This document shows positions 11,770-44,319 of a DNA stretch of 64,000 nt, piece after piece. The notes beneath the pieces were generated by a model. That model searched no databases. It worked only from the letters and a program-made list of their open reading frames with translations, and was not told where the DNA came from. Source of the DNA: an uncultured Acidimicrobiia bacterium. GTDB taxonomy: Bacteria > Actinomycetota > Acidimicrobiia > Acidimicrobiales > Ilumatobacteraceae. How positions within the stretch are numbered: the first letter of the stretch is position 1; each line of letters opens with the position of its first letter. The stretch is taken from assembly GCA_963836545.1 (NCBI GenBank), contig CAWIKD010000005.1, positions 55,186 to 119,185 on the forward strand. Reading direction: 5' to 3'. Made by a program: the position numbers and the translations under genes.

Positions 11770-12378
11770 ATGATCTTCACGACCCGTTGCGCCGGCTGCG
11801 AGACACCGGGCGCCCCGATCTGTCGCACCTGCCGGTTCGCGCTCGTCAGCCGGGCTCGCCCCGAGGCACCCGACGGCGTCCTGGTCGCCGCCCCGTTCTC
11901 CGGGCGGGTCCGCGACGTGCTGCTCGGGTTCAAGTACCGCAACCGGCGAGCGGTCGCCGGACACCTCGCCGGGTTGCTGGTGAACCGGCTGGTGGCGGCC
12001 GATCGGGGCGTCGACATCGTGACGTGGGCGCCCACCAGCCGACGACGACGACGGGAGCGCGGCTTCGACCAGGCCGAGCTCGTGGCCCGCCACGTCGCCC
12101 GCCAGCTGGGCGTGCCGTGCCGGCGCCTGCTCGACCGGGCCGACGTCGAGGGTCCCCAGACCGGACGCGATCGTCACGCCCGGCTCCACGCACCGACGTT
12201 CCGCGCCCATCCCCACGTGCCCCGGGCGCGCATCCTCGTCATCGACGACGTGGTGACGACGGGCGCCACCTTGCGGGCGGCGACCGCCGAGCTCGAACAG
12301 GCCGGCGCCACCGAGGTGGTTCCGGCGGCGTTCGCGGCGACACCGGATCGCCGCCACCAGATGGCTCGGGCGGCCTGA
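11770..12378 (+). CDS. ComF-family phosphoribosyltransferase-domain protein
   Basis: N-terminal Cys cluster (CAGCETPGAPICRTCRF) and PRTase motif ILVIDDVVTTGATL. Its position upstream of secA matches the mycobacterial Rv3242c-secA1 arrangement. Confidence 0.75.
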   Translation: MIFTTRCAGCETPGAPICRTCRFALVSRARPEAPDGVLVAAPFSGRVRDVLLGFKYRNRRAVAGHLAGLLVNRLVAADRGVDIVTWAPTSRRRRRERGFDQAELVARHVARQLGVPCRRLLDRADVEGPQTGRDRHARLHAPTFRAHPHVPRARILVIDDVVTTGATLRAATAELEQAGATEVVPAAFAATPDRRHQMARAA

Positions 12379-12435
12379 GCCCGCTCGCCGACCGTCACGC
12401 CACCGGCCCCCGCTGGGCGCGATCCGTCGCACCTG

Positions 12436-29073: not shown

Positions 29074-31628
29074 TCCAACCGGCGGATGGGGCCGTCGGGC
29101 GGGCGGGCGACGCCGACTCGGATCACCGCGTCGGTCACGGCAACGCCCTCGGCAGAGGCGATGATCGGGTTGAGGTCGACCGAGGAGATCTCGTCGTGGT
29201 CGCTGATCAGCTGGGCGACGCGCATCAGCGTGTCGACGACCGGCCCCGGCGCGAGGCCGGCCCCCTCGAGGGCTGGGCCGGCGCGCGAGCCGGCCAACAG
29301 GGCGGCCGCGCTGGCCGACGACAGCGGTGCCAACCGCGAGGCCTCGTCGCTGACCAGGTCGGCCGTCGAGCTCCCCAGCCCGATCGCCACCAACGGACCG
29401 AGCTTGTCGTCGACGGTGCTGCGGATGCGCAGGTCGAGACCCGGCGCGACCATCGGCTGCACGCGCACGGACGCCGCATCGTCGCCGAGCGCCTCGCGCA
29501 TCACCCCGACGGCCTCGAGGACGTCGGCCTCGTGGGCCAGGTCGAGGGCGACGCCGGCCCGCACCGAGCGCCCGAGGTGGCGGCGCTCGGCCTTCACCGC
29601 GACCGGGTAGCCGATCTCCGAGGCGAGGGCGACGGCGTCCTCGGCCGGGCCACAGCGGGTCTCCGGCGCCACGACCCCATAGGCGCGCAGCACGGTGCCG
29701 ACGGCATCGACGTCGAGGTGGTCGTCACCTCGCTCGACGGCCGCTGTGATCGTGGCGTGGGCGCCGGCGCGGTCGATGTCACCGACATCGGTCACGCTGG
29801 CCGCCGACTCGTCGGTGAGCCAGGCGCCGTAGAGGTGGACGCGACCGAGGACGCCCGCCGCCGGCTCGGGGAACCCGAACGCCGGCAGGGTCGAGCCCGG
29901 ACGCAGCGGTCCGTCGCGCCCGCCCATCAGCACGGTCACGATCGGCTTGGTGGCGCCGACCGCGGCGGCCTCGATGGCTGCCACCGGCGCGTCGACCAGC
30001 TCGGCCAGGGGTGGCGCGTGCACGACCATCACCGCGTGGACGGTGTCGTCGGCGAGGGCGGCGCGCAGTGCCGCCGCGTAGTCGTCGGGCGTCGAGCGCC
30101 AGTCGAGCGGCGGCGTGCTCGGCACGACCTCGAGGCGCGCCGTGTGCAGCGCCGCTTCGCTGAGGGTGTGCGGGCTGCGGGCGTTGGACAGCAGCGCGAC
30201 GCGCGGCCCCGTCATGATCGGCTGGGTGGCGAGGACTCGGGCGGTGTCGAGCATGGCCGCGACCGTCGGGACCTCGATGAGACCGGCCTGCTGGTAGAGC
30301 GCGCCGCCCGTCGGACCGATCGCCGCGGCACCGGTGCGCACGGCCACGATCGGACGGTGCAGCGACACCCGCCGGGCGATGCGGGCGAACTTGCGGGCGT
30401 TGCCGAACGACTCGGTGTACATCGCGATCACCCGGGTCGTCTCGTCGTCCTCCCAGAACTGCAGCAGGTCGTTGCCCGACACGTCGCTCTTGTCGCCGAG
30501 CGACACGAACCACGACAGCCCCATGTGCAGGTCGGTGGCCAACCGCAGCACCGACGCACCCAACGACCCGGACTGCAGCGAGATGGCGACGCCGCCGGGC
30601 GACAGGTCGGCCGGCACGAGCAGGGCGTCGACACCGACCGATTCGCGCGGCGCGGCGACGCCCATGCTGCCGGGACCGATCAGGCGCACGCCGTAGTTGC
30701 GGGCCTTGGTCACGAGGGCGTCGATGTCGACGTCGGTCCCCTCGAGGGACGTCACGATGACCGCACCGCGGACCCGCGCCGCGATGCAGTCCTCCACGAC
30801 GGTCGGGAGGGCGGCGGCCGGCACGGCGACGACCGCCAGGTTGACGTCGGCGGGGACGTCCTGCAGGCGGGCGAACGCGGTGTGCCCGTCGACCGTGTCG
30901 TGGGCCGGGTTCACCGGGAACACCTCGCCCTTGGCCGCTGCGGTGACGTGCCGCCACAGGGCCCGCCCGATCGAGCCGCGCTCGTCGCTGGCCCCGACGA
31001 CGGCGATCGTTCGGGGCAGGAGCAGGCGGGCAACGGCGCGCGAGTCGGCGCGCTGCTCCCGGCGCTCGACGGAGTCGCGGAACTCGTCGGTCTCCTCGAG
31101 AGCGAAGTCGAGGTCGACGACGCCGCTGTCGAAGCGTCGCTCGACGGGCCAACCCGCACGGCTGAACACGGCCAGCATCGGGCGGTTGTCGGCGAGCACC
31201 TCGGCGGTGAAGCGCACGATGCCATTGGCGCGAGCGACGGTGGCCAGGTGCTCGAGCAGGAGCGTGGCGATCCCCTTGCCCTGGTGCGCATCGTCCACCT
31301 GGAAGGCGGCGTCGGCGTCGTCGCGACCGGCCCACCGCTCGTAGCTGGCCCACGCGATGAACTCGCCCTGCCGCTCCACGACGAGGGCCACCCGGTTCAC
31401 GAGGTCGACCTCCGTGAAGTGGCGGAGATCGGCTGCGCTCAGGTGCGGCTTCGGCGAGAAGTAGCGCCGATAGATGCTGTCGCGGGACTGCCGGTCGTGG
31501 AAGGCGGCCAGCGCCGGCGCATCGTCCGGACGGATCGGCCGCACGAGGGCGCTCTCGCCGTCGCCCAGCACGACGGTGCTCGACCAACGCTCGGTGGGCT
31601 CCGCGGTCGCGGGCGGTGCGGCGGCCAT
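29070..31628 (-). CDS. bifunctional GNAT acetyltransferase / NDP-forming acyl-CoA synthetase-domain protein (Pat-like protein lysine acetyltransferase, Streptomyces-type domain order)
   Basis: N-terminal GNAT domain (..QVDDAHQGKGIATLLLEHL..), then CoA-binding (IAVVGASDE), succinyl-CoA-synthetase-like and ATP-grasp regions over 852 aa, uninterrupted. Confidence 0.75.
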   Translation of the reverse strand: MAAAPPATAEPTERWSSTVVLGDGESALVRPIRPDDAPALAAFHDRQSRDSIYRRYFSPKPHLSAADLRHFTEVDLVNRVALVVERQGEFIAWASYERWAGRDDADAAFQVDDAHQGKGIATLLLEHLATVARANGIVRFTAEVLADNRPMLAVFSRAGWPVERRFDSGVVDLDFALEETDEFRDSVERREQRADSRAVARLLLPRTIAVVGASDERGSIGRALWRHVTAAAKGEVFPVNPAHDTVDGHTAFARLQDVPADVNLAVVAVPAAALPTVVEDCIAARVRGAVIVTSLEGTDVDIDALVTKARNYGVRLIGPGSMGVAAPRESVGVDALLVPADLSPGGVAISLQSGSLGASVLRLATDLHMGLSWFVSLGDKSDVSGNDLLQFWEDDETTRVIAMYTESFGNARKFARIARRVSLHRPIVAVRTGAAAIGPTGGALYQQAGLIEVPTVAAMLDTARVLATQPIMTGPRVALLSNARSPHTLSEAALHTARLEVVPSTPPLDWRSTPDDYAAALRAALADDTVHAVMVVHAPPLAELVDAPVAAIEAAAVGATKPIVTVLMGGRDGPLRPGSTLPAFGFPEPAAGVLGRVHLYGAWLTDESAASVTDVGDIDRAGAHATITAAVERGDDHLDVDAVGTVLRAYGVVAPETRCGPAEDAVALASEIGYPVAVKAERRHLGRSVRAGVALDLAHEADVLEAVGVMREALGDDAASVRVQPMVAPGLDLRIRSTVDDKLGPLVAIGLGSSTADLVSDEASRLAPLSSASAAALLAGSRAGPALEGAGLAPGPVVDTLMRVAQLISDHDEISSVDLNPIIASAEGVAVTDAVIRVGVARPPDGPIRRLD

Positions 31629-31674
31629 GGATCGATGATGCCACGGGGTTCCACGGCGCGGATCGTGGCCGGTG

Positions 31675-32334
31675 TCACCGTCGGCGGCGGGTACGCACGT
31701 CCTCCAACTCGACCTCGACGACGGTCCGCGCCGGAGCCCGACGGCGCGGCGGCGCCGGGCGAGCCCGGTAGCGGGTGCGGACCTCGCACGGCGGCTCCTC
31801 GGGTGGCGGCGTCGTCAGTTCGCCGCGGATGCGAGCCACGGTGTCGGGCCCCCAGATCCGGGCGACGACCAGGTACGCGGCGTCGATCGCGCTGGCCTGG
31901 CCGGTGGCCGTCACGAACGGTCCGTCGACGGCGACGCGGTCGTGGGAGACGGTGACGCCGTGGCGCTCGAGCAGCGGGCCGGCGAGCCAATGGGTCGCCG
32001 CCGTGCGGCCGCGCAGCACGCCGGCCGCGGCGAGCAGGGCCGAGCCGGTCGAGCTGGTCAGCACGAAGTCGGGCCGGACGGCGAGCGTCCATGCGGCGAT
32101 CTCGGGATGGCGATGGCTGCCGAGCCCGCCGGGCAGCACGACGATCGAGGCGTGGCGGACGTCGTCGAACGTGGCATCGACGATCTGCACGCCGCCCGGC
32201 CCGGCCACGGGGCCCTTGGCCGCGCCGACCGTGACGAGGTGGACGTCGGGCGCCCGGCCGAGCACCGACCGGAAGGCGTGGGTCTCATCGGCCAAAACGC
32301 CCTGGTAGGCGACGATGGCGACCTGTCGTTCCAT
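31675..32334 (-). CDS. DJ-1/PfpI-family protein (type-1 glutamine amidotransferase-like fold)
   Basis: MERQVAIVAYQGV..VVLPGGLG..LTSSTGSALLAAAGVL is the DJ-1/PfpI core. Confidence 0.6.
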   Translation of the reverse strand: MERQVAIVAYQGVLADETHAFRSVLGRAPDVHLVTVGAAKGPVAGPGGVQIVDATFDDVRHASIVVLPGGLGSHRHPEIAAWTLAVRPDFVLTSSTGSALLAAAGVLRGRTAATHWLAGPLLERHGVTVSHDRVAVDGPFVTATGQASAIDAAYLVVARIWGPDTVARIRGELTTPPPEEPPCEVRTRYRARPAPPRRRAPARTVVEVELEDVRTRRRR

Positions 32335-32394
32335 GTGTGCAACTCCCGTTCGGCGTGCAGTCTCGCGCGGCGACCGCGTCACGATCAGCGGCGT

Positions 32395-32817
32395 TCAGCG
32401 CCGGTTGCAGCGGGTGAACAGGCGGCGGTCCTTGCCCGGGCCGCTGACGTCCCACACGACGCGCATCGTCCGGAGGTCGGCGGCGATGACGACGAGCCCG
32501 CGATACGTGTCCGGTGGGCAGTCGTGGACGACCGGCGAGCCAGGGGACCACGGGTGGAAGGGGCGCCCATCGTCGAAGCACACGACCCAGCCCGCGGCCT
32601 CGTGGCGAACGACGAGCCGGCGGGTGACGGGGAGCTGTTGATCGCCCCACCTGAGCACGCCCTCCTCGCACCACGCCACGTCGTCGCCTTCGGCGGCGAG
32701 CGTCAGGGTTCCGACGACCCGCCCGAACTGGGGTGCCCCACCATCAGTCGGCCGATCGACGATCCGCCGGGCGAGGTCCCAGACGCCGAGCAGGTCGGTC
32801 GGTTCGACGGCCGGCAC
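32395..32817 (-). CDS. conserved hypothetical protein (~140 aa); start codon uncertain (GTG proposed)
   Basis: Sensible, non-repetitive text only in the last ~140 codons of ORF 32395..33162 (..LLGVWDLARRIVDRP..VVRHEAAGWVVCFDDGRPF..). Upstream codons are Ser/Arg/Pro-rich. Confidence 0.4.
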   Translation of the reverse strand: MPAVEPTDLLGVWDLARRIVDRPTDGGAPQFGRVVGTLTLAAEGDDVAWCEEGVLRWGDQQLPVTRRLVVRHEAAGWVVCFDDGRPFHPWSPGSPVVHDCPPDTYRGLVVIAADLRTMRVVWDVSGPGKDRRLFTRCNRR

Positions 32818-32839
32818 GGGCTCGAGTCTCGCGCCCAGG

Positions 32840-33634
32840 TCAGCGCGGTCGCCGGCCCCAGGTCTGGACGACCTGGGCCGTGGTGACGACGGTGTCGGGC
32901 CGCCCGATGACGGCGTCGAGCTCGGCGAGGAGGCCGTCGATCTCCGCATGGTCGGTCTGCCCGGCGGCCACGGCCGCGTCACGCAGCGCGTCGAGCGTGA
33001 GGCGCTGGATCCGCTTGCGGTCGCCGACCAGGGCCGCCGGCTGGGCGACGTGGACACCGACGTCGACGAGCCCGGCTGCGACCAGGTGCGGCGGGAGCTG
33101 CGGGCCGATGTTCGGATCTCCGCCGTTGGCCCGCACGGTGCGCGAGTAGATGTCGACGGCACGCTCGAACGCCGCCGACCGCGGCGCGCACCAGGCGCCG
33201 GCGATGTGGGTGTCCTCGATGATCAGCACGCCACCCGGCGCCAGCAGTCCGCCGAGCGCTCGGACCCAGCGTCGACCGTCGCCGAGATGGGACAGCAGGA
33301 AGCGGGCGTACACGACGTCCGCGAACGGACCCCGCTCGACCGTCGTCGCGACGTCCTCGACGATGAGCTCGACGTTCGCCGCGGCCTCGGCGCGGGCCAG
33401 CTCGACCTTGACCTCGTCGGCGTCCGTGCCGATCACCCGCCCGTCGATCGCCCGCGTCGCGAGCATTGCCGTGACCTCCCCGCCACCGCAGCCGACGTCG
33501 ATGCAGGCGGCGCTGCTGGGGATGCCCACGCGATCGAGCAGCGTTGCCGTCGTCGGCGCCATGACGGCCGACAGCACCCGCAAGCGCTCCCGGCCGACGG
33601 TGCCGCCACGGATGGTGTACGTCCCTGCTCGCAT
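32840..33634 (-). CDS. class I SAM-dependent methyltransferase
   Basis: MRAGTYTIRGGTVGRERLRVL..CIDVGCGGGEVTAMLA..VIGTDADE..GGVLIIED: motifs I and post-I. The upstream 334 codons of ORF 32840..34636 are Arg/Pro-rich non-coding. Confidence 0.7.
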   Translation of the reverse strand: MRAGTYTIRGGTVGRERLRVLSAVMAPTTATLLDRVGIPSSAACIDVGCGGGEVTAMLATRAIDGRVIGTDADEVKVELARAEAAANVELIVEDVATTVERGPFADVVYARFLLSHLGDGRRWVRALGGLLAPGGVLIIEDTHIAGAWCAPRSAAFERAVDIYSRTVRANGGDPNIGPQLPPHLVAAGLVDVGVHVAQPAALVGDRKRIQRLTLDALRDAAVAAGQTDHAEIDGLLAELDAVIGRPDTVVTTAQVVQTWGRRPR

Positions 33635-33717
33635 GGCTCTGAGCGTGCGCCCGTCCCTCACGACGACGCGTGGAGAGCACCCGGAGATCGGGTGGAGATC
33701 GGGCAGTCGCCGACCCG

Positions 33718-34227
33718 TCAGGTGAAGCGGTAGCGGGTGTGGCTGTAGGGGTCCTTGCCGAAGGCGTAGGCCCGGGACGGCTCGACGCGGAACACCTCGG
33801 CCCGTCCGCCGTGGTGGGCGAAGGCGCCGTCGGCGACGTCGAAGTGCCACTCCGCGCCGTACTTGTCCTCCCACGCCGCGGCCAGCGATCGCAGCTGGGC
33901 GTCGTCGGTGACCGGCGTCGCCGTTCCCTCGACGGCGATGTCGAGGCCGGCGTGCAGGGTGTTGGTGCCGGTGCTCATCAGCACGTCCGGGTTGGACGCG
34001 ATGTTGCGGGCCTTCTGCTCGTCGGGGCCGGTGCAGAAGTGCAGGGCGCCGTCGGCGTAGACGCCGATCAGCGGCGTCATGTGCGGGCCGCCGGACGCCC
34101 GCACCGACGTCAGCCAGTACAGCTCGGCGCCGCCGAGCGCCTGCTCGACGCTGGCCCACGGCGTCGCGGCGACGCTCTCGTCGCCGTAGCGGGCGTCCAG
34201 GTCGGGGGTCGGGGAGGAAGCGGTCAT
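33718..34227 (-). CDS. pyridoxamine 5'-phosphate oxidase-family protein (PPOX class, probably F420/FMN binding)
   Basis: 170 aa starting MTASSPTPDLD. ..AELYWLTSVRASGGPHMTPLIGVYADGALHFCTG..NPDVLMSTG.. is the PNPOx-like split-barrel pattern. Confidence 0.65.
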   Translation of the reverse strand: MTASSPTPDLDARYGDESVAATPWASVEQALGGAELYWLTSVRASGGPHMTPLIGVYADGALHFCTGPDEQKARNIASNPDVLMSTGTNTLHAGLDIAVEGTATPVTDDAQLRSLAAAWEDKYGAEWHFDVADGAFAHHGGRAEVFRVEPSRAYAFGKDPYSHTRYRFT

Positions 34228-34264
34228 GGGAGAACGACCCCGCCGGACTCCTCGATTCATCGAT

Positions 34265-34308
34265 CTGGGCGCGAAACCGTCGCAGAACTGCGACGGTTTC
34301 GCGCCCAG
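34265..34308 (+). promoter_or_regulatory. 44-bp perfect palindrome (21-bp arms, 2-nt centre) in the divergent promoter region between the PPOX gene and the patatin-like gene
   Basis: CTGGGCGCGAAACCGTCGCAG-AA-CTGCGACGGTTTCGCGCCCAG; the reverse complement of the left arm equals the right arm exactly. Confidence 0.8.
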
Positions 34309-34362
34309 AAAGCCCAGTGAGACGGATCGCGCCCAGATCGCGAGGGCGCGAGACTGCACGGC

Positions 34363-35323
34363 ATGGCTGGCATCGCCCTCGTGCTCGGCGCCGGGGGGAC
34401 GGTCGGCCACGCCTTCCACGCCGGTGTGCTGGCCGCCCTGTCCGACGTCCGCGGCTGGGACGCCCGCCGCGCCGACGTCGTGGTCGGCACGTCGGCCGGT
34501 TCGGTCGTCGCCGTCCTGCTGCGTGCCGGCATGCCGCCCACCGACCTCTCCCAGCGGGGCAGCCGACTGCCGTTGTCAGCGGAGGGCGAGGCGGTCGTGC
34601 GCCGGGCCGGCCTCGGGCCGCCCCGGCCGCGCCCACCCCGCCGGCGGGCCTCGGGGTCGATGGCGTCGCCGGCCCGCCTCGCCCGCGCCGCTCGCCGCGC
34701 CGTGGGCGGTGACGCCGGGATCACTGGCGGCCGCCGTGCTGCCGGCCGGTCAGGTCGCGACGGCCGACATGGGCGTCCCGTTCGACAACCTGTACGGCGA
34801 GACGTGGCCGAGTCAGCCGACCTGGCTCGTGGCCGTGCAGCTCGACAGCGGCCGGCGCGTCGCGTTCGGGCGGCCGGGCGCGCCGGCGGCTCGCGTGTCC
34901 GATGCCGTGCGGGCGTCGTGCGCCATCCCGGCGTACTTCGAGCCCGCCGTGATCGACGGCCAGCGCTACGTCGACGGTGGCGTGCACTCGACGACGAACG
35001 CCGACCTGGTCGCCGGCGAGCGCCCCGACCTCGTGCTCGTCAGCGCGCCGATGTCAGCGGCACGGGGCGCGCTCGGACGCCTCGACGCGATGAGCGCGGT
35101 GCGCCGCTTCGCCAGCCTGTCCCTGGCCCGAGAGGTCTCCGGGCTGCGCGCCAAGGGCATCCCGGTCGTCGTGTTCCAGCCCACCGCGCGCGACCTCGAG
35201 GTGATGGCCGGCGACTCGCTCGATCCGGCGAAGTTCGCCCCGGTCTCGGCGCGGGTGCGCGAGACGGTGCGCCAGCGGCTGGCCAGACAGGACGTCGCCG
35301 ACCGGCTCGGCGCGCTGGGCTGA
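34363..35323 (+). CDS. patatin-like phospholipase; frame change between ~34560 and 34750
   Basis: N-terminal GAGGTVGHAFHAG..VVVGTSAGSVVA (oxyanion hole plus GxSxG) in ORF 34363..35550. C-terminal part (..AIPAYFEPAVIDGQRYVDGGV.. catalytic Asp region) in ORF 34226..35323. Confidence 0.7.
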
Positions 35324-35327
35324 ACCC

Positions 35328-36062
35328 TCAGCCGACCCGGTCGCGCACGCGCAGCTCGTCCCCGAGCGCGACCGCGCCGCCCTGCGCGATGAGCAGGCCG
35401 ACGCCGAGGTGGGTCTCGCGCTCGGCGTTGATCGTGCGCAGGACGTCGAGGTCGCGCTCGATGCCACCCGGCTGCGGGCGCGTCGTCATCACGCAGCGGT
35501 CGATCGCCTTGACGACGTCGGCCACGACGTCGCCGACCTCGATGCGATGACCGACGAAGCCCTGCTCGACATCGACCCCGTCCGTCTCGATCAGCACGTT
35601 GCCGCGGAAGCGGCGGCGGTCCCAGTCACCGATGGTGCCGGTGCCGATGACCGAGACCCGTGTCTTGCCGGAGTCGTGGAACGTGCCGTCGGGTCCGTCC
35701 CACTCGAACCACGGTGACCCCGCTTCGTCCTCGAAGTCGGCGGCGATCTCGTAGCGCCCGGGGACCCCGCCGCCGGCGTGGCGCAGCTCGATGTCCCGGC
35801 CCAACCACGCCGACAGCGCGGCGTCATCGGCCGCCACCGAACCGTCGGGGAGCGTGATCTCGACGTCGTCGCCGACCAGCCGGGCCGACGCGAACAGCAG
35901 CTCGGGGACGCGGCGGGCGGTCAACGCCAGCCCGGTGCCGAGGTCGACCAGCGCCCACTGCCGATCACCGTTGATGCCGAGCTCGTCGATCGTGGCCGTG
36001 GCGAGCTCCTCGCCCTGCATCGACTTGACGGGAAAGCGCCACAGGCTCACGACTCGCATGCC
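35328..36062 (-). CDS. MOSC-domain protein
   Basis: MRVVSLWRFPVKSMQGEEL..GDRQWALVD..RFRGNVLIE: N-terminal beta-barrel plus MOSC motifs. Confidence 0.7.
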   Translation of the reverse strand, partial: GMRVVSLWRFPVKSMQGEELATATIDELGINGDRQWALVDLGTGLALTARRVPELLFASARLVGDDVEITLPDGSVAADDAALSAWLGRDIELRHAGGGVPGRYEIAADFEDEAGSPWFEWDGPDGTFHDSGKTRVSVIGTGTIGDWDRRRFRGNVLIETDGVDVEQGFVGHRIEVGDVVADVVKAIDRCVMTTRPQPGGIERDLDVLRTINAERETHLGVGLLIAQGGAVALGDELRVRDRVG

Positions 36063-36178
36063 GCGATCCTGCCAGAGCGGGAATCCATGCCGTCTCCACA
36101 CCCGCTCCATGCGGGCGCCACGCCGGTTCCTCCATGGTGACGAGGCCACCGAGGCCACCGATCAGAGAAGGATCTCCC

Positions 36179-36847
36179 ATGTCGCCTGCCAGCTCGTCGA
36201 CGCTCGCCCGCCCCGAGGGCGCCGACACGTCTGACTACGCCATCATCCACCACGCCATCCGCAGCGCCGGTCACGCCCTCGCCGATGCCGCGGCGACGCT
36301 GACCGTCGCCGATCAGCGGCGGCTGCAGGCCTTCATGAAGTACTGGCACGGTCACACCGGCGAGATCCTCGGCCACCACGGCATCGAGGACGTGATCTTC
36401 TTCCCGTCGCTGCGGGCCCGCTCGATGAGCTCCGTCGCGGTGCTCGAGCAGCTCGATGCCGAGCACCACCACCTGGATGAGCTGATGGACGCGGCCGAGC
36501 TGGAGCTCGGCCGGGTCGTCGCCGGCGCCGCGCCGACGGGTGCGGTCGATGCCCTGCGTCGGCTGGCCGACGTGATGGACCGCCACCTCGACGTGGAGGA
36601 CCGCGAGATCGTGCCGCGCTTCGTCGAGCTGTACACGGCCGACGAGTACGAGGCACTGACCAAGGCGGCGATCAAGCAGACCGGGATCAACAAGCAGGCC
36701 GCCTTCACCGTGCCCTACATCGGCTACTGGTCGAGTGCGGAGGAGCGCGAGCTGCTGCTGGCCCAGGCACCGGTGCCGTTCCGGATCCTGTACCGCGCCA
36801 CCCGGCGCCGCCACGGCAAGCTCGCCGCGCTGGCGCTCGGGCGGTGA
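36179..36847 (+). CDS. hemerythrin-like domain protein
   Basis: GAAGGA RBS. Paired His-rich helices (IIHHAIRS..HHGIEDVIFFP..EHHHLDELMD..HLDVEDREIVP) are typical of HHE cation-binding domains. Confidence 0.55.
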   Translation: MSPASSSTLARPEGADTSDYAIIHHAIRSAGHALADAAATLTVADQRRLQAFMKYWHGHTGEILGHHGIEDVIFFPSLRARSMSSVAVLEQLDAEHHHLDELMDAAELELGRVVAGAAPTGAVDALRRLADVMDRHLDVEDREIVPRFVELYTADEYEALTKAAIKQTGINKQAAFTVPYIGYWSSAEERELLLAQAPVPFRILYRATRRRHGKLAALALGR

Positions 36848-37972
36848 TCAGCCGACGGTGACCGCGGCCAGGCTGGCGATCGCCGTCGTGCGCTTGGGCT
36901 GGCGCACCTCGTGGCGGTCGTAACCGTTCGTCACGAACGCGAACGACAGCCCGGTGGCCGGATCGGCCCAGCAGATCTGGCCGCCGGCGCCGTTGTGGCC
37001 GAACGTGCCGGGCGACACCGTGCGGCCCATGCCGCGGGCGTGCGACCAACCGTCGTCGCCGGCAAGGATCAGCCCGAGCGAGCGGTTGGCGGGGACGCCG
37101 GCCGGATCGGGCAGGCGGTTGCGCACGCGTGACGTGACGTCCTGGCGCAGGTCCTCCGGCCACACGTCCTCCTGCCCGTGGAGCAGCCGTTGGTAGAACG
37201 TCGCCATGTCGACGGCGCGGGCGAAGCCCCCGCCCCCGGGCACCCCGACGGCGCGGGCCGCGGGCTCGTTGAAGCGCAGGACGGCGTCGTCGGTGACCTC
37301 GGTGACGGGGAGCGCCGGCACGCCGAAGGCGGCCATCAGCTCGTCGCTCGTGGCCGGCTCGCCGACGAGCACGAGGTCGGCGATGTCGTCCTGGTCGTCT
37401 TCGGGGATCCCGAGCAGCCGAGGCAGGCCGAGCGGCTTCGTGACCAGCTCCTCGACGGCGTCACGGAAGTCGGTGCCGGTGACCGTCTCGATGAGCTCGG
37501 CCTGGACCCAGTGGGCCGCGGTCGGGTGGTACTCGTAGCGCGTCCCGGGCTCCCAGTTGAGCCGCCACGACGCCATCTTCTCCCGCCGGGACGCCCGCTC
37601 ACCCCACACGGCCGGACCCATCGGGGCGTACGGGAAGCCGGACTGGTGCAGCATGACCTGCTCGAGCGTGATGTCCTGCTTGCCGTTGGCCCCGAACTCC
37701 GGGAACCACGTCGTCACGGGCAACGCCGGGTCGAGGGCGCCCTCGCCGATCAGCCGCCACACGGTCGAGGCGACGAGCGGCTTGGTCGCTGAGAAGAGGC
37801 AGAAGCGGGTGTCGGGACCGGCCGTCCCGAACGCGCGCGACTCGATGATCTCGCCGTCGCGCGCCAGCGCGAACTGGGCCGCCGGGAGCAGCCCGCTGTC
37901 GACCTCGCGCTGGATGCGCTCGGAGAGCTTCTCGACGGCGGCGACGTCAGGTTCGTTGGCGGTCAGCGACAT
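36848..37972 (-). CDS. serine hydrolase of the beta-lactamase/transpeptidase family (esterase-like)
   Basis: SATK (S-x-x-K) active-site motif, YHP-like and HNGAGG motifs. 374 aa, uninterrupted. Confidence 0.8.
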   Translation of the reverse strand: MSLTANEPDVAAVEKLSERIQREVDSGLLPAAQFALARDGEIIESRAFGTAGPDTRFCLFSATKPLVASTVWRLIGEGALDPALPVTTWFPEFGANGKQDITLEQVMLHQSGFPYAPMGPAVWGERASRREKMASWRLNWEPGTRYEYHPTAAHWVQAELIETVTGTDFRDAVEELVTKPLGLPRLLGIPEDDQDDIADLVLVGEPATSDELMAAFGVPALPVTEVTDDAVLRFNEPAARAVGVPGGGGFARAVDMATFYQRLLHGQEDVWPEDLRQDVTSRVRNRLPDPAGVPANRSLGLILAGDDGWSHARGMGRTVSPGTFGHNGAGGQICWADPATGLSFAFVTNGYDRHEVRQPKRTTAIASLAAVTVG

Positions 37973-38032: not shown

Positions 38033-38085
38033 TGCGAACTTTCCGCGCACGCGCCCACATGCAGGGCGCGAGCGCGGAAAGTTCG
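38033..38085 (+). promoter_or_regulatory. 53-bp near-perfect nested palindrome (23-bp arms with one mismatch, 7-nt centre ACATGCA) upstream of the serine-hydrolase gene and downstream of TetR
   Basis: GCGAACTTTCCGCGCACGCGCCC-ACATGCA-GGGCGCGAGCGCGGAAAGTTCGC. It shares the GGGCGCG/CGCGCCC and GCG(G)AAA/TTT(C)CGC cores with the 34265 palindrome. Confidence 0.7.
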
Positions 38086-38114
38086 CGGTTTTGCCCGCTG
38101 GGTGCCCTGGTCGG

Positions 38115-38665
38115 TCAGCGGACGGCGGCGAGGGCGTCGGCGCGGGCGATGAGGGCGGCCAACCCCTGCTCGAGGGCGGCCGACGGCGTCGAGTGGATCG
38201 GGTACAACCCGTGCAGCTCGAGCTCGACCATGCCCCGCATGAACGCGTACGCGGCGATGGCCAGGTCGGAGTCGCCGGCGGCGAGGAACCACTGGCGGCG
38301 GTTGTCGGTGAGCACGTCGGCGGCCTCGGCCCGGGGATACGGCAGCTCGTGGACGTACAGGTAGATCTCGCGGTTCGCCATCGCGTGGGCCCGATACGAG
38401 TCGGCGACGCGCTCGATCGGGTGGCGATCGTCGTCGGCTTCGCGGGCCGACTTCAGGGCGTCGCGCAGGGCGATGAGGTAGTCGACGTACACGGCCCGCT
38501 CGATGGCGCCCTTGTCCGGGAAGTGCTTGTACAGCGACGGAGCCTGGATGCCCAGGTGATCGGCCAGGCGCCGCATCGTCAGATCGCCCTCGCCGCTGGC
38601 GATCAGACCGCGGGCCTGCTCGACGATCTCCTCGGCGCGAGGTGTGCGGACGGGCTGCTCGGCGA
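38115..38665 (-). CDS. TetR-family transcriptional regulator; no canonical start codon in frame after the upstream stop
   Basis: HTH region ..TPRAEEIVEQARGLIASGEGDLTMRRLADHLGIQAPSLYKHFPDK.. plus a C-terminal ligand domain. The in-frame stretch between TAG (38676) and the HTH has no ATG, GTG or TTG, so an indel or an unusual start is likely. Confidence 0.7.
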
Positions 38666-38766
38666 TGGAACGAGGCTAGCCCTCACGTAAGCTGGACTGC
38701 AGCTAACACTGTGAGCCGGTGTCAGGATGTGGCCCGGCACTGCCCGCACGACCCCAGGGGGACACG

Positions 38767-41822: not shown

Positions 41823-43106
41823 TCACAAACCCACGCCGCTACCTGCTGCCGATGTGGGACGGCGGCGGGACCGTGGCGCCCGGGCTCGGTGTCGCCAGAC
41901 GGCTCATCGCGCGCGGTCACGCCGTCCACGTCCTGGCCGATCCGACGATCGAGGACCAGGCCATCGCGACGGGCTGCACGTTCACGCCGTGGACGCGAGC
42001 TCCTCATCGCATGACGCTCGATCCCGACCAGGACCTGCTGCGCGACTGGGAGACGACGAACCCGCTCGTGATGCTGGGCCGCGTCCGCGACCGCTTCATC
42101 GCCGGGCCGGCCGAGCAGTTCGCGGCCGACACCGGCGAGGCGATCGACCTCGTCCGACCCGACGTCGTGGTGCCCGACTACCTGATCTTCGGCGCCATCA
42201 TCGCCGCCCAGGCCGCCGACGTGCCGGTGGTGCCGATCGTGCCCAACATCTGGACGCTGCCGAGCCCCGGCGTCCCGGCCATCGGCCCGGGCTTCCCACT
42301 CGCCAAGGGCCGGCCCGGTCGGTGGCGCGACGCCGCCCTGCTCACGGTCGTCAACGCCCTGTTCCGGCGGGGCCTCCCGCCTCTCAACGCGGCCCGGACG
42401 GCGCGCGGTCTGCCCCCGCTGCGCTCGTTCTACGACCAGGTGCTCGACACGCCGCGGATCCTCGTGCTGGCCAGCCCGGGCTTCGACTTCGCGTCGCCGT
42501 CCGTGCCGGCCAACGTCACCTACACCGGTGCCATCCTCGACGAGCCGGCGTGGGCCGAACCGTGGACCGACACGCGCCACGACACCGGCCGACCGCTCGC
42601 GCTCGTCGGGTTCAGCACGACCTACCAGCAGCAGGGGCCGCTGCTGCAGCGGGTCGTCGACGCCTTGTCGTCGCTGCCCGTGGACGGCATCGTCACGCTC
42701 GGCCAGATGCTCGCGCCGGACGCCGTCTCCGGCGCATCCCAACGTCACCGTCGTGCCGTCGGCGCCGCACGGCCCGATCCTCGACCACGCCGCGGTGGCG
42801 ATCACGCACTGCGGCCACGGCACGGTCATGAAGGCGCTCGCCCACGGCGTGCCGATGGTGTGCATCCCGATGGGTCGCGACCAGAACGACACGGCCGCCC
42901 GCGTCGTCCACCACGGCGCCGGCGTGCGGCTGTCACCCAAGGCGTCCACCGAGCGGATCGCCGCCGCCGTGCGCCAGGTGCTCGACGACCCCAGCTACCG
43001 CGACAACGCCCGGCGCATGGCGCAGGTCATCGCCGCCGAGTCCGAGGCGGCCGACGTGGTCACCGAGCTGGAGGCCGCCGCCGGCAACGGCGCCGTCACC
43101 GTCTGA
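41819..43106 (+). CDS. GT1-family glycosyltransferase (macrolide/UDP-glycosyltransferase MGT-like); frame change near 42700-42745
   Basis: N-terminal MITNPRRYLLPMWDGGGTVAPGLGVARRL..ILVLASPGF.. in ORF 41426..43702. C-terminal donor-binding part (..HCGHGTVMKALAHGVPMVCIPMGRDQNDTAARVV..) in ORF 42528..43106. Confidence 0.7.
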
Positions 43107-43177
43107 CGCCATCCGAGGGTTTGGTGCGGGGCCCCCGTGCACGAAACCCTCGGATGCAACGAAACCCTCGGATGGGA

Positions 43178-44319
43178 TCAGGCGTGGAGCCAGTCGGACA
43201 GGATCTCGGCGCGGTGCTGGTCCTGGCGGGGGGCGGGGCCGCGGACGCCGGCGTCACCGTTGGAGAAGCGGTACGGGGCGCGGATGATCGAGTAGTTGCC
43301 GTCGGGGTCCTCGATCTCGACGATCGAGCCGCGGTGGGCGAGCGTCGGCGAGTCCAGCGCTTCGGCGCACGACTTCACGATCCCCCACGCCAGGTTGGCC
43401 TTGTCCAGCGCGGCGAGCAGCTCGGCCCGGGTGGCGAACGACTGGTGGAACTCGTACCAGGCCTGGCGGCGGCAGGCGACCTTCTCGTCGAGCGAGGCAC
43501 CCTCCGGCGTCGGGTCGGCGACGCCGAGGCGCTCGTTGATGCACTTCCAGATCCACTTGAACTCGCCCATCACGATGACCTTGCCGTCGGGCGCGGCGAT
43601 GATCTCGCTCGGGCTGGTGCGGGTGTGGGCGGCCCCGGCGTCGTCACCGGCCGACGCGCGTCACGGCGGGCCGCCGCCGCGGCGACCTCGTTGGGGAGGT
43701 AGTCGTCGCTCATCGCCATCGCATCGATCATCGCCATGTCGACGTGCTGGCCGAGGCCGGTGGCGTCGCGCAGCCGCAGTGCCGACAGCACGCCGATGAC
43801 GCCGTGCAGCCCGGTGACCGTGTCGGCCATCGAGATCTCGATGTCGAGGTGCTGCGCGCCCTCGGGGGTGCGCCGCCGGGCGGTCACGCCGGTCTCGGCA
43901 TGGATCACGCCGGCGTACGACGCCCGGTCACGCTCCGGTCCCTCCTGGCCGAAGCCGGAGATCGACAGCATCACGAGCCGCGGGTTGACCTTCACGAGGT
44001 CGTCGTAGGCGAGCCCGAAGCGGGCCATGACGCCGGGCCGGAAGTTCTCGGTGACGACGTCGGCGACGCTGGCCAGCCGCGTGACGAGGTCGCGGCCCTC
44101 CGCCGTCGTGAGGTCGACGGTGATCGAGCGCTTGCCGGCGTTCTGCTGGCGGAAGTAGGCGCTCTCGGGCTTCTTGCCGAACAGGCGCGACACGTCGCCC
44201 TCGGGTGGCTCGACCTTGACGACATCGGCGCCGAGGTCGGCGAGGATGCGGCCGGCGTGCGGACCGGCGAGCACGCGGCACAGGTCGAGGACCTTCACGC
44301 CGTCCAACGGTGATGCCAT
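43178..44319 (-). CDS. CaiB/BaiF-family CoA-transferase (third copy); frame change near 43570-43650
   Basis: N-terminal MASPLDGVKVLDLCRVLAGPHAGRILADLGADVVKVE..DVVTENFRPG.. in ORF 43570..44319. C-terminal ..MMGEFKWIWKCINERLGV..PYRFSNGDAG.. in ORF 43178..43573. Confidence 0.65.

Follow-up and report, generated by a model that had tools for sequence, protein, structure and literature searches.

Here we examine a perfect palindrome that lies between two divergently oriented genes, one encoding a PNPOx_N-family (PPOX-class) protein and the other a patatin-like protein, in a stretch of 64,000 nucleotides (nt) from an uncultured Acidimicrobiia bacterium (contig CAWIKD010000005.1; hereafter the window). 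We consider it probable that this palindrome represents the hairpin core within a young copy of a dispersed repeat family of the Acidimicrobiia, including the Ilumatobacteraceae, and not an operator. The family resembles repetitive extragenic palindromic (REP) elements, REP doublets forming hairpins (REPINs) and miniature inverted-repeat transposable elements (MITEs). Two sets of comparisons carry this reading. Hairpins of the same design form a taxon-restricted family with several copies per genome and compensatory variation in their stems, and presence or absence of the element varies at two loci, the palindrome being missing from all orthologous spacers. The sequence-only reading that first drew attention to the palindrome had named two observations that would speak against a regulatory role, namely recurrence at unrelated loci and absence from relatives with the same gene pair, and both were made here.

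The palindrome and the orthologous spacers

The palindrome had been described as an exact inverted repeat at 34265-34308 with 21-bp arms. The sequence is as written, and its symmetry runs one base further on each side, giving two arms of 22 nt (34264-34285 and 34288-34309) that are 100% complementary around a 2-nt centre; we refer to this hairpin as HP1 (Table 1). It is the longest perfect hairpin of the window, and the earlier judgement that it is improbable by chance is borne out by 40 first-order Markov simulations of 64 kb (spacer up to 8 nt), in which the longest perfect arm measured 9-13 nt (mean 10.5) against the 22 observed. The 21-nt arm has no second match in the window even with up to three mismatches allowed (0.01 expected). 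Measured from the 22-nt arms, HP1 stands 36 nt from the PNPOx gene and 53 nt from the patatin gene, in agreement with the neighbours and distances first given (about 37 and 55 bp). A second, shorter inverted repeat had been placed at 34324-34346; it does exist (HP2), but those coordinates are about 4 nt off.

The spacer is predicted to be highly structured. HP1 alone folds at -43.8 kcal/mol in RNAfold, and a 153-nt region folds at -82.7 and -84.3 kcal/mol on the two strands, with z-scores of -5.8 and -6.7. An Rfam search of the spacer returned nothing meaningful (best match MIR839, with 21.7 bits where the threshold is 200), and a scan of 34100-34500 for consensus sigma-70 promoters and terminators gave no site, a scan that is uninformative for an actinobacterium of 72% GC. 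The whole spacer, HP1 and HP2 alike, is made from one motif: TCGCGCCCAGA stands at 34299-34309 and at 34327-34337, with its complement at 34264-34274, and GGGCGCGA(A/G)AC stands at 34267-34277 and 34344-34354.

Relatives were gathered through PNPOx protein homologues, a metagenome scan and contig look-ups. Seven of them (L001, L002, L003, L203, L205, L206 and L207) have the same divergent PNPOx/patatin arrangement, with PNPOx proteins 71-88% identical to that of the window. The sequence-only reading had asked whether orthologous intergenic regions carry the palindrome, and it is absent from the orthologous site in all seven, where the spacer measures 54-56 nt as against 135 nt in the window. 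Because the spacers of these relatives are so much shorter and lack the palindrome, the window carries a lineage-specific insertion of about 77-80 nt. Contig L001, fully syntenic and 87% identical in nucleotide sequence over 6.4 kb, gives the same picture in blastn, with window positions 34229-34347 left unaligned (119 nt facing 40 nt). The spacers of the relatives read ...(C/T)TCATCG(G/C)-N4-6-GCGAGACT-N6-7-ATG, the core GCGAGACT standing in the same place in every insertion-free relative except L003, which has GCGAGGCT there.

Against this ancestral arrangement the left junction of the insertion falls between TTCATCG and ATCTGGGCGCG, and the right junction 5-6 nt before the GGGCGCGAGACT motif that adjoins the patatin start. 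An alignment of four spacers in MAFFT misplaced the gap owing to the similarity between the right-hand part of the insert and the ancestral spacer, and junctions set by hand together with the ends of the blastn blocks were used instead. The likeliest extent of the element is bounded by terminal inverted repeats that, with the flanking CG, amount to 14 perfectly matched nucleotides at 34261-34274 and 34327-34340; the bases flanking these ends merely lengthen the inverted repeat (CG on both sides in the window, C and G in L204, a related locus discussed below). Parsed otherwise, the element would span 34267-34343 (77 nt) between direct repeats of GGGCGCGA, which gives an 11-nt flanking repeat (10/11 identical), but the ends are then not inverted repeats. 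The insertion parts the old spacer into 35 nt on the PNPOx side and 19 nt on the patatin side.

Two further proposals concerning the GGGCGCGAGACT motif were considered and dropped. It had been a candidate target-site duplication or relic unit, but the closest relatives have GGTGCTGCGAGACT at that place, and for this reason only GCGAGACT is taken to be ancestral at the patatin site. Movement of the element by inversion between inverted copies of GGGCGCGAGACT (32825-32836 and 34344-34355) was rejected since the PNPOx orientation and the left junction are unchanged.

A dispersed hairpin family in Acidimicrobiia

The building block of the family is a unit of about 20 nt, termed R, with the consensus GAGACGGATCGCGCCCAGAT. 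Both palindrome arms are variants of R, and a third copy to their right has the consensus form itself; the same 20-mer occurs in L001 (4431-4450), in L204 and at many loci of metagenome-assembled genomes (MAGs) of Acidimicrobiia. The left arm of HP2 is part of this inserted third unit, and its right arm belongs to the GGGCGCGAGACT motif. The pattern GACGGN{1,2}TCGCGCCCAG occurs four times in the window where none is expected.

The pattern GACGGN{1,2}TCGCGCCCAGAW was scanned in 185,579 species-representative genomes and matched at least 114 stretches, the source genome of the window not being among the matches listed. Among these listed matches, those in Proteobacteria, Planctomycetota, Acidobacteriota and other phyla occur singly and show no hairpin structure, and those in MAGs labelled Acidimicrobiia, Ilumatobacteraceae, Acidimicrobiaceae or Actinomycetota share the hairpin design of the window. 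This design consists of ATCTGGGCGCG(G)ATC(C)GTC, an inner stem and loop, and GACGGATCGCGCCCAGAT (for example TCTGGGCGCGGATCGTTGCAG-AT-CTGCGACGGATCGCGCCCAGA in L096), so that two inverted R units 2-5 nt apart form a hairpin of 44-46 nt, often with an extra R unit next to it. In an alignment of 16 hairpins the outer stem, TCTGGGCGCG...CGCGCCCAGA, is invariant and the inner stem is variable; the subtype core of the window hairpin is CGTCGCAGAACTGCGACG. The consensus structure of the 16 has 20 pairs, eight of which show double compensatory changes.

A covariance model built from this alignment (R1) scores HP1 at 58.7 bits (E = 9e-14). At E < 1e-5 it found 20 further hairpins, all at Acidimicrobiia-type MAG loci or on soil contigs with PNPOx relatives (L008, L010 and L204), while about 105 loci from other phyla or from viral contigs yielded none. 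The viral contigs gave 17 single pattern matches, none of them strong by R1 (best E = 0.013), and a blastn search of a plasmid collection gave no match. Several MAGs carry copies on different contigs: MFD09267.bin.2.135 at no fewer than five loci, TH_ant_mag_25 at three or more loci with four hairpins, MFD02840.bin.1.278 at two or more and MFD05747.bin.2.16 at a minimum of two to three. The adenosylhomocysteinase (AhcY) of the window has its best named relatives in an Ilumatobacteraceae MAG (90%), Desertimonas (87%) and an Acidimicrobiales MAG (87%), which suggests that the window is Acidimicrobiia-like, as are the hosts of the family.

It is extremely improbable that a fold-back chimera or some other artefact of assembly or sequencing produced the palindrome. 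The window does come from an uncultured-genome assembly, and the related contig L001 is rich in 1-nt insertions and deletions. However, the palindromic element is only 46 nt long with colinear sequence on both sides, and hairpins of the same design are found in assemblies from many independent projects and assemblers.

The surroundings of the other copies bear on the proposal that the palindrome is a high-affinity operator, through which a dimeric factor encoded elsewhere would control divergent PNPOx and patatin promoters. By our simple ORF calls, eleven copies lie between convergent genes, seven between tandem genes and none between divergent genes (three could not be assigned), often 0-35 nt after a stop codon. 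When two pairs that share a locus are collapsed, 16 independent sites remain, and the probability of finding no divergent spacer among them is about 0.01 if one quarter of spacers are divergent; the window copy is the exception. We regard the operator as very unlikely. Its position between two divergent starts, its perfect dyad symmetry and the presence of a TetR-family gene (38115-38675) 3.8 kb away are what such a site would lead one to expect; the earlier statement that no regulator gene is adjacent is true of the immediate neighbours, this TetR-family open reading frame (ORF) being the nearest regulator-like gene. However, an operator should be conserved in orthologous promoter regions, and none of the seven relatives has it; some 20 unrelated loci share the design, mainly in convergent or tandem spacers and mostly at the 3' ends of genes; and the inner halves of the arms vary by compensatory changes that preserve pairing and not a readable DNA sequence. 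Typical operator half-sites are, moreover, much shorter than 22-bp arms around a 2-bp centre. The same recurrence at about 20 unrelated loci, taken with the absence from relatives with the same gene pair, upholds instead the REP or palindromic-unit option of the sequence-only reading.

A second locus shows that the element comes and goes. L204 encodes a PNPOx protein 84% identical to that of the window in a locus without a patatin or methyltransferase gene, and between its PNPOx stop and the start of a DUF6314 gene it carries the composite A TCTGGGCGCGAATCCGTCGCAAACCTGCGACGGTTCCGCGCCCAGA tcgccgttt GAGACGGATCGCGCCCAGAT gtgcgcc GGCGCGAGACT, to be compared with A TCTGGGCGCGAAACCGTCGCAGAACTGCGACGGTTTCGCGCCCAGA aagcccagt GAGACGGATCGCGCCCAGAT cgcgag GGCGCGAGACT in the window. 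The hairpins are identical at 42 of 46 positions and the third units at all 20, and the spacer has the same length (9 nt). The two elements share their ends, ATCTGGGCGCGA...TCGCGCCCAGAT, over about 76 nt before two different genes, and both composites stand 5-7 nt before GG(G)CGCGAGACT-N7-start codon. At the L204 site (locus M in the window) the window has only CCTGGGCGCGAGACT, whereas L001 has 25 extra nucleotides that include an R unit and L204 the whole composite. A 38-nt stretch of the window, comprising the third unit and the motif that follows it, matches L001 after the methyltransferase stop (89%, E = 9e-7). The shortened L001 version, with TCTG directly followed by AGACGG at its junction, looks as if the hairpin had been lost by deletion. 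Since L204 has the composite at another locus and the orthologous sites are empty, the element is gained and lost on the time scale that separates genomes about 85-90% identical.

The sequence in front of the two genes is itself of some interest. GG(G)CGCGAGACT, with exactly 7 nt between it and the start codon, precedes both the patatin gene (34344-34362) and the DUF6314 gene (32815-32836, minus strand; GTG at 32817), and this arrangement is also found in L001, L064 and L204, L206 lacking the motif before DUF6314. The core GCGAGACT at 6-7 nt from the start is kept in the relatives, with the L003 form as given above. GAGACT may serve leaderless transcripts as a -10 box, or may be what is left of a repeat unit.

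Comparison with L204 also bears on why the arms of HP1 are perfect. The L204 hairpin has two mismatches, its left arm reading GAATCC against GGAACC in the complement of its right arm; in the window both arms read GAAACC, each arm having moved closer to the other at a single position. Compared with the family consensus (GATCC / GGATC), the window differs by a substitution and a 1-nt insertion or deletion, both mirrored on the two arms, and this is the signature of arm homogenisation. Intrastrand template switching, or quasi-palindrome correction, is the established mechanism that turns quasi-palindromes into perfect ones and has been described for bacterial and other genomes, and it may well have homogenised the window arms to perfection. 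A purely local origin, in which template switching or inverted duplication in place made the palindrome without any mobile or dispersed element, is nevertheless improbable. The homogenised arms with their mirrored differences, the 11-nt direct repeat (10/11) flanking the insert and the reverse complementarity between part of the insert and the left flank would all suit it, but the 20-mer GAGACGGATCGCGCCCAGAT is not derivable from the local ancestral sequence and is identical in L001, L204 and many MAGs, and HP1 both scores 58.7 bits with the family model and matches the L204 copy elsewhere at 42 of 46 positions. Template switching thus probably perfected the arms but does not account for the source of the sequence.

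A dispersed-repeat origin, the reading we favour, can be set out as follows. A composite of about 76-80 nt, made of the hairpin, a 9-nt spacer and a third R, was inserted into a PNPOx/patatin spacer of about 55 nt, 5-6 nt upstream of GCGAGACT. The copy would be young. It may owe its presence to transposition, or else another family member may have been copied here under the guidance of microhomology, beside GCGAGACT-like sequence. It would have no dedicated regulator, and at their usual 3' positions the family hairpins may end or stabilise transcripts.

Several points weigh against this reading. The window holds one full family copy in 64 kb and two or three partial ones, and the per-genome copy numbers seen, at least five in one MAG and at least three in another where REPs number tens to hundreds, come from an exact-pattern scan. 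Gene contexts were taken from our own simple ORF calls (stop-to-stop, GC3 >= 0.75 and GC3 > GC1 > GC2, GC1-3 being the GC content at the three codon positions). The element boundary is ambiguous by a few nucleotides through microhomology, and there is no clear target-site duplication around the window element. No transposase of the REP-associated tyrosine transposase (RAYT), IS200 or other type was linked to the family within 1.2 Mb searched by tblastn, of which about 0.25 Mb is from Acidimicrobiia; the queries were approximate versions of two Y1 transposases (E. coli RayT and IS608 TnpA), and their lack of a match is a weak negative. Finally, sequence alone leaves room for a function at the window site.

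A more specific proposal is that the family constitutes an active, Acidimicrobiia-specific hairpin population analogous to REPINs, in a phylum from which such systems are not known to have been reported, moved by an enzyme other than a classical RAYT and inserted in a half-site-guided manner beside GGGCGCGA or GCGAGACT-like sequence. The half-site idea is based on two loci in three genomes, and we hold this proposal to be rather doubtful. In the Acidimicrobiia MAG MFD04850.bin.2.113 we also observed a repeat of about 135-160 nt in four copies that are about 88% identical and have unrelated flanks (L149 3400-3545, L163 6701-6846, L169 3895-4037 and L197 2399-2545, all on the minus strand). All four end in a family unit, GAGACGGATCGCGCCCAGA, and in these four copies there is no Rfam match, no adjacent transposase-like ORF and no convincing covariation. 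This repeat could be the end of an autonomous partner, or a participating RNA.

Some family members are embedded in other repeats. The hairpin at L137 261-304 is nested in a larger inverted repeat (L137 150-420) with arms of about 50-60 nt (…GGTCCAGGCGAGCGCAGCGAGAC…), and CGCTGCGCTCG-like strings flank both hairpins of L154, pointing to a further repeat family of larger size in Ilumatobacteraceae. A variant at L124 50-121 shares the outer stem, differs in its inner part (TCTGGGCGCGCACGTTCTC...GAGAACGTGCGCGCCCAGA), contains an additional embedded TCTGGGCGCG and scores 37 bits with R1.

No description of palindromic repeats in Acidimicrobiia was found in open-access text, and we appear to be dealing with an undescribed REP-like family in a widespread, mostly uncultured class. 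Recognising it keeps a striking perfect palindrome from being taken for a regulatory site. The family comes equipped with a 20-nt unit, a covariance model, evidence of recent gain and loss between genomes about 87% identical and a clear case of an imperfect hairpin becoming perfect, and it may serve as a starting point for work on the mobilisation of such elements in Actinomycetota and as an aid to genome annotation and strain typing.

Genes beside the insertion and other repeats of the window

Coordinates of the principal features are collected in Table 1. Beyond the flanking pair, the neighbourhood contains genes for a methyltransferase, a MOSC protein, a hemerythrin and a beta-lactamase-family protein.

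Table 1. Positions in the window of the inserted element, its repeat units and the flanking genes (a dot marks features without a strand).
Feature	Position	Strand	Remarks
PNPOx_N-family (PPOX-class) gene	33718-34227	minus	
Patatin-like gene	34363-35323	plus	ATG at 34363
HP1	34264-34309	.	inverted pair: R' TCTGGGCGCGAAACCGTCGCAG, AA, R CTGCGACGGTTTCGCGCCCAGA
HP2	34327-34351	.	8-bp stem TCGCGCCC (34327-34334) / GGGCGCGA (34344-34351), 9-nt loop
Third R copy, GAGACGGATCGCGCCCAGAT	34319-34338	plus	consensus form of the unit
Inserted element, likeliest extent (about 76 nt)	34263-34338	plus	12-nt terminal inverted repeats ATCTGGGCGCGA / TCGCGCCCAGAT
11-nt direct repeat, left copy GGGCGCGAAAC	34267-34277	plus	partner at 34344-34354, 10/11 identical, 77 nt start to start
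GGGCGCGAGACT motif	34344-34355	plus	7 nt upstream of the patatin ATG
Locus M, CTGGGCGCGAGACT	32825-32839	minus	directly after the methyltransferase stop, 7 nt before the DUF6314 GTG
Lone partial unit GACGGATCGCGCCCAG	12413-12428	minus	16/16 match; between an ORF ending at 12378 and secA (ATG 12502)

The patatin gene of the window is split by a 1-nt insertion near 34696, with its N-terminal part in the frame of 34363 and its C-terminal part in the ORF at 34226-35323. The listed patatin ORF of 395 aa (34363-35550) is thus genuine for about its first 110 codons only, and the DGG motif lies in the frame of the 34226-35323 ORF; the intact orthologue of L207 has 319 aa. This frameshift could mark a pseudogene or an assembly error. 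In L003 only 11 codons of the patatin gene are left (MAGVALVLGTR and a stop codon), and these lead directly into the MOSC gene (L003 1409-1460), and L003 nonetheless keeps the spacer of about 55 nt and the motif. The frameshift of the window and the deletion in L003 would fit weak constraint on the patatin gene. Taking patatin frameshifts as proof of gene decay across the clade was considered and dropped. Compared with window positions 30820-37271, L001 has about 25 single-base insertions spread across all genes, and the contig looks error-prone, probably as a long-read assembly; because such 1-nt changes run throughout L001, its frameshifts are biologically uninformative.

On the PNPOx side there is an in-frame ATG on the minus strand (34260-34258), which precedes the PNPOx start by 11 codons and is separated from the palindrome by 3 nt. 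L002, L003 and L203 have it at the same position, within the conserved TCATCG, and the intervening peptide is not conserved. Its use as the PNPOx start is uncertain: three relatives keep the reading frame, but the peptide is not kept and GC3 is low. If this ATG were used, the palindrome would begin 3 nt upstream of a start codon.

The insertion places a hairpin of -44 kcal/mol and a second 8-bp hairpin beside both gene starts, and pushes the two start regions about 78 bp further apart. Accordingly, one may ask whether the inserted hairpin has been co-opted here, as a 5' untranslated region (5'-UTR) hairpin that stabilises or blocks translation of PNPOx or patatin, or as an insulator against antisense transcription. 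Very stable structures are predicted on both strands, with the energies and z-scores given above; HP2 pairs GGGCGCGA at 12-19 nt before the patatin ATG; and on the PNPOx side the conserved ATG stands 3 nt from the hairpin base. These features notwithstanding, we think co-option unlikely. The window is the sole genome with the insert, so that there is no conservation; no other family member lies between divergent genes; the consensus scans gave neither promoter nor terminator; and the patatin frameshift better matches relaxed constraint than new regulation. The 5'-UTR hairpin of the sequence-only reading is physically possible, as the energy of the hairpin alone attests, but it does not hold as a conserved feature and would be a side effect of the insertion. 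With a frameshifted patatin gene beside it, the insertion most likely has a neutral or mildly disruptive effect at this site, and for the locus itself no special biological consequence is demonstrable from sequence.

Other variation was noted next to locus M. A methyltransferase gene lies between PNPOx and DUF6314 in the window (compared span 32840-33700), L001 and L203; L064 (240-300), L204 (890-1000) and L206 lack it and have DUF6314 immediately after PNPOx. One edge of this gene-sized insertion or deletion coincides, in the window and L001, with the GGCGCGAGACT site.

The window contains further inverted repeats. A second long palindrome at 38034-38086 has 23-nt arms that are 96% complementary, GCGAACTTTCCGCGCACGCGCCC-N7-GGGCGCGAGCGCGGAAAGTTCGC, with a CGCGCCC...GGGCGCG centre, and separates two minus-strand genes, with the stop of the TetR-family gene (38115-38675) on one side and the start of the beta-lactamase-family gene (36848-37972) on the other. 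Model R1 does not match this palindrome, which could be a terminator or the TetR operator. Nested inverted repeats at 43100-43184, with 26-nt arms (85%) and 18-nt arms (94% complementary; CATCCGAGGGTTTGGTGC / GCACGAAACCCTCGGATG), are unrelated in sequence to the R-unit hairpin family.

Comparison with known element types

The features of the family can be compared with several known systems. Quasi-palindrome correction accounts for the perfect hairpin of the window as against the imperfect L204 copy; however, it is a mutational process and not an element family, and is silent on where the sequence came from and how it spread. With intrinsic terminators the family shares GC-rich hairpins, most of its members lying just after stop codons, but no U-tract follows the stem, and the window copy stands between two gene starts with nothing to terminate, so that it does not qualify as a terminator at this site.

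In outline the element is like a MITE. It is non-coding, about 76-80 nt long, present or absent at individual sites and bounded by perfect terminal inverted repeats of 12-14 nt, the same ends being found in L204. Unlike MITEs, it shows no clear target-site duplication, no parent insertion sequence was identified for it, and its long palindrome is due to a third, internal copy of the terminal repeat.

REP elements are found mostly between convergent genes or genes in the same direction (PMC3733652), and the family resembles them in context because its copies show the same bias, 11 convergent and 7 tandem against no divergent site. A REP survey (Di Nocera et al. 2013, PMC3733652) makes no mention of Actinomycetota, whereas the hosts of this family are Acidimicrobiia. 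In CGTC-tagged REPs the stem measures 8-9 bp and opens with A/T pairs, the tag lies at one of its ends, and a CCA-like tail follows (PMC3733652). The inner stem of the family likewise begins with CGTC and ends with GACG (CGTCTCGG...CCGAGACG; CGTCGCAG..CTGCGACG in the window), but here CGTC lies in the middle of a 20-22 bp stem with a conserved 13-nt outer stem, which sets the family apart by description. Judged against the GTAG/CGTC tags of that survey (PMC3733652), GTAG is absent and CGTC is paired inside the stem and not terminal. CGTC-tagged REPs are not known to have a transposase of their own.

The closest parallels are with the REP elements and bacterial interspersed mosaic elements (BIMEs) of Enterobacteria and with the REPIN/RAYT systems of Pseudomonas (PMC3116915, PMC3337134). 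The family unit is unrelated in sequence to theirs and has no terminal GTAG tag; its units are just 2-5 nt apart, whereas REPINs have a longer spacer; and no RAYT gene, which in REPIN systems is single-copy and has cognate REPs on its flanks, was found among the 1.2 Mb searched with approximate queries (about 0.25 Mb of it from Acidimicrobiia). The palindromic unit does form a stem-loop, of 44-46 nt as against the usual 20-40 nt, since it is a doublet of units of about 20 nt, and the other copies occupy extragenic positions between convergent or same-direction genes. As in REP/BIME and REPIN systems, short GC-rich extragenic palindromic units occur in multiple copies, inverted pairs of them (R'-R doublets) fold into one long hairpin, the spacers occupied are convergent or same-direction, and presence varies between close relatives while the family persists across the lineage.

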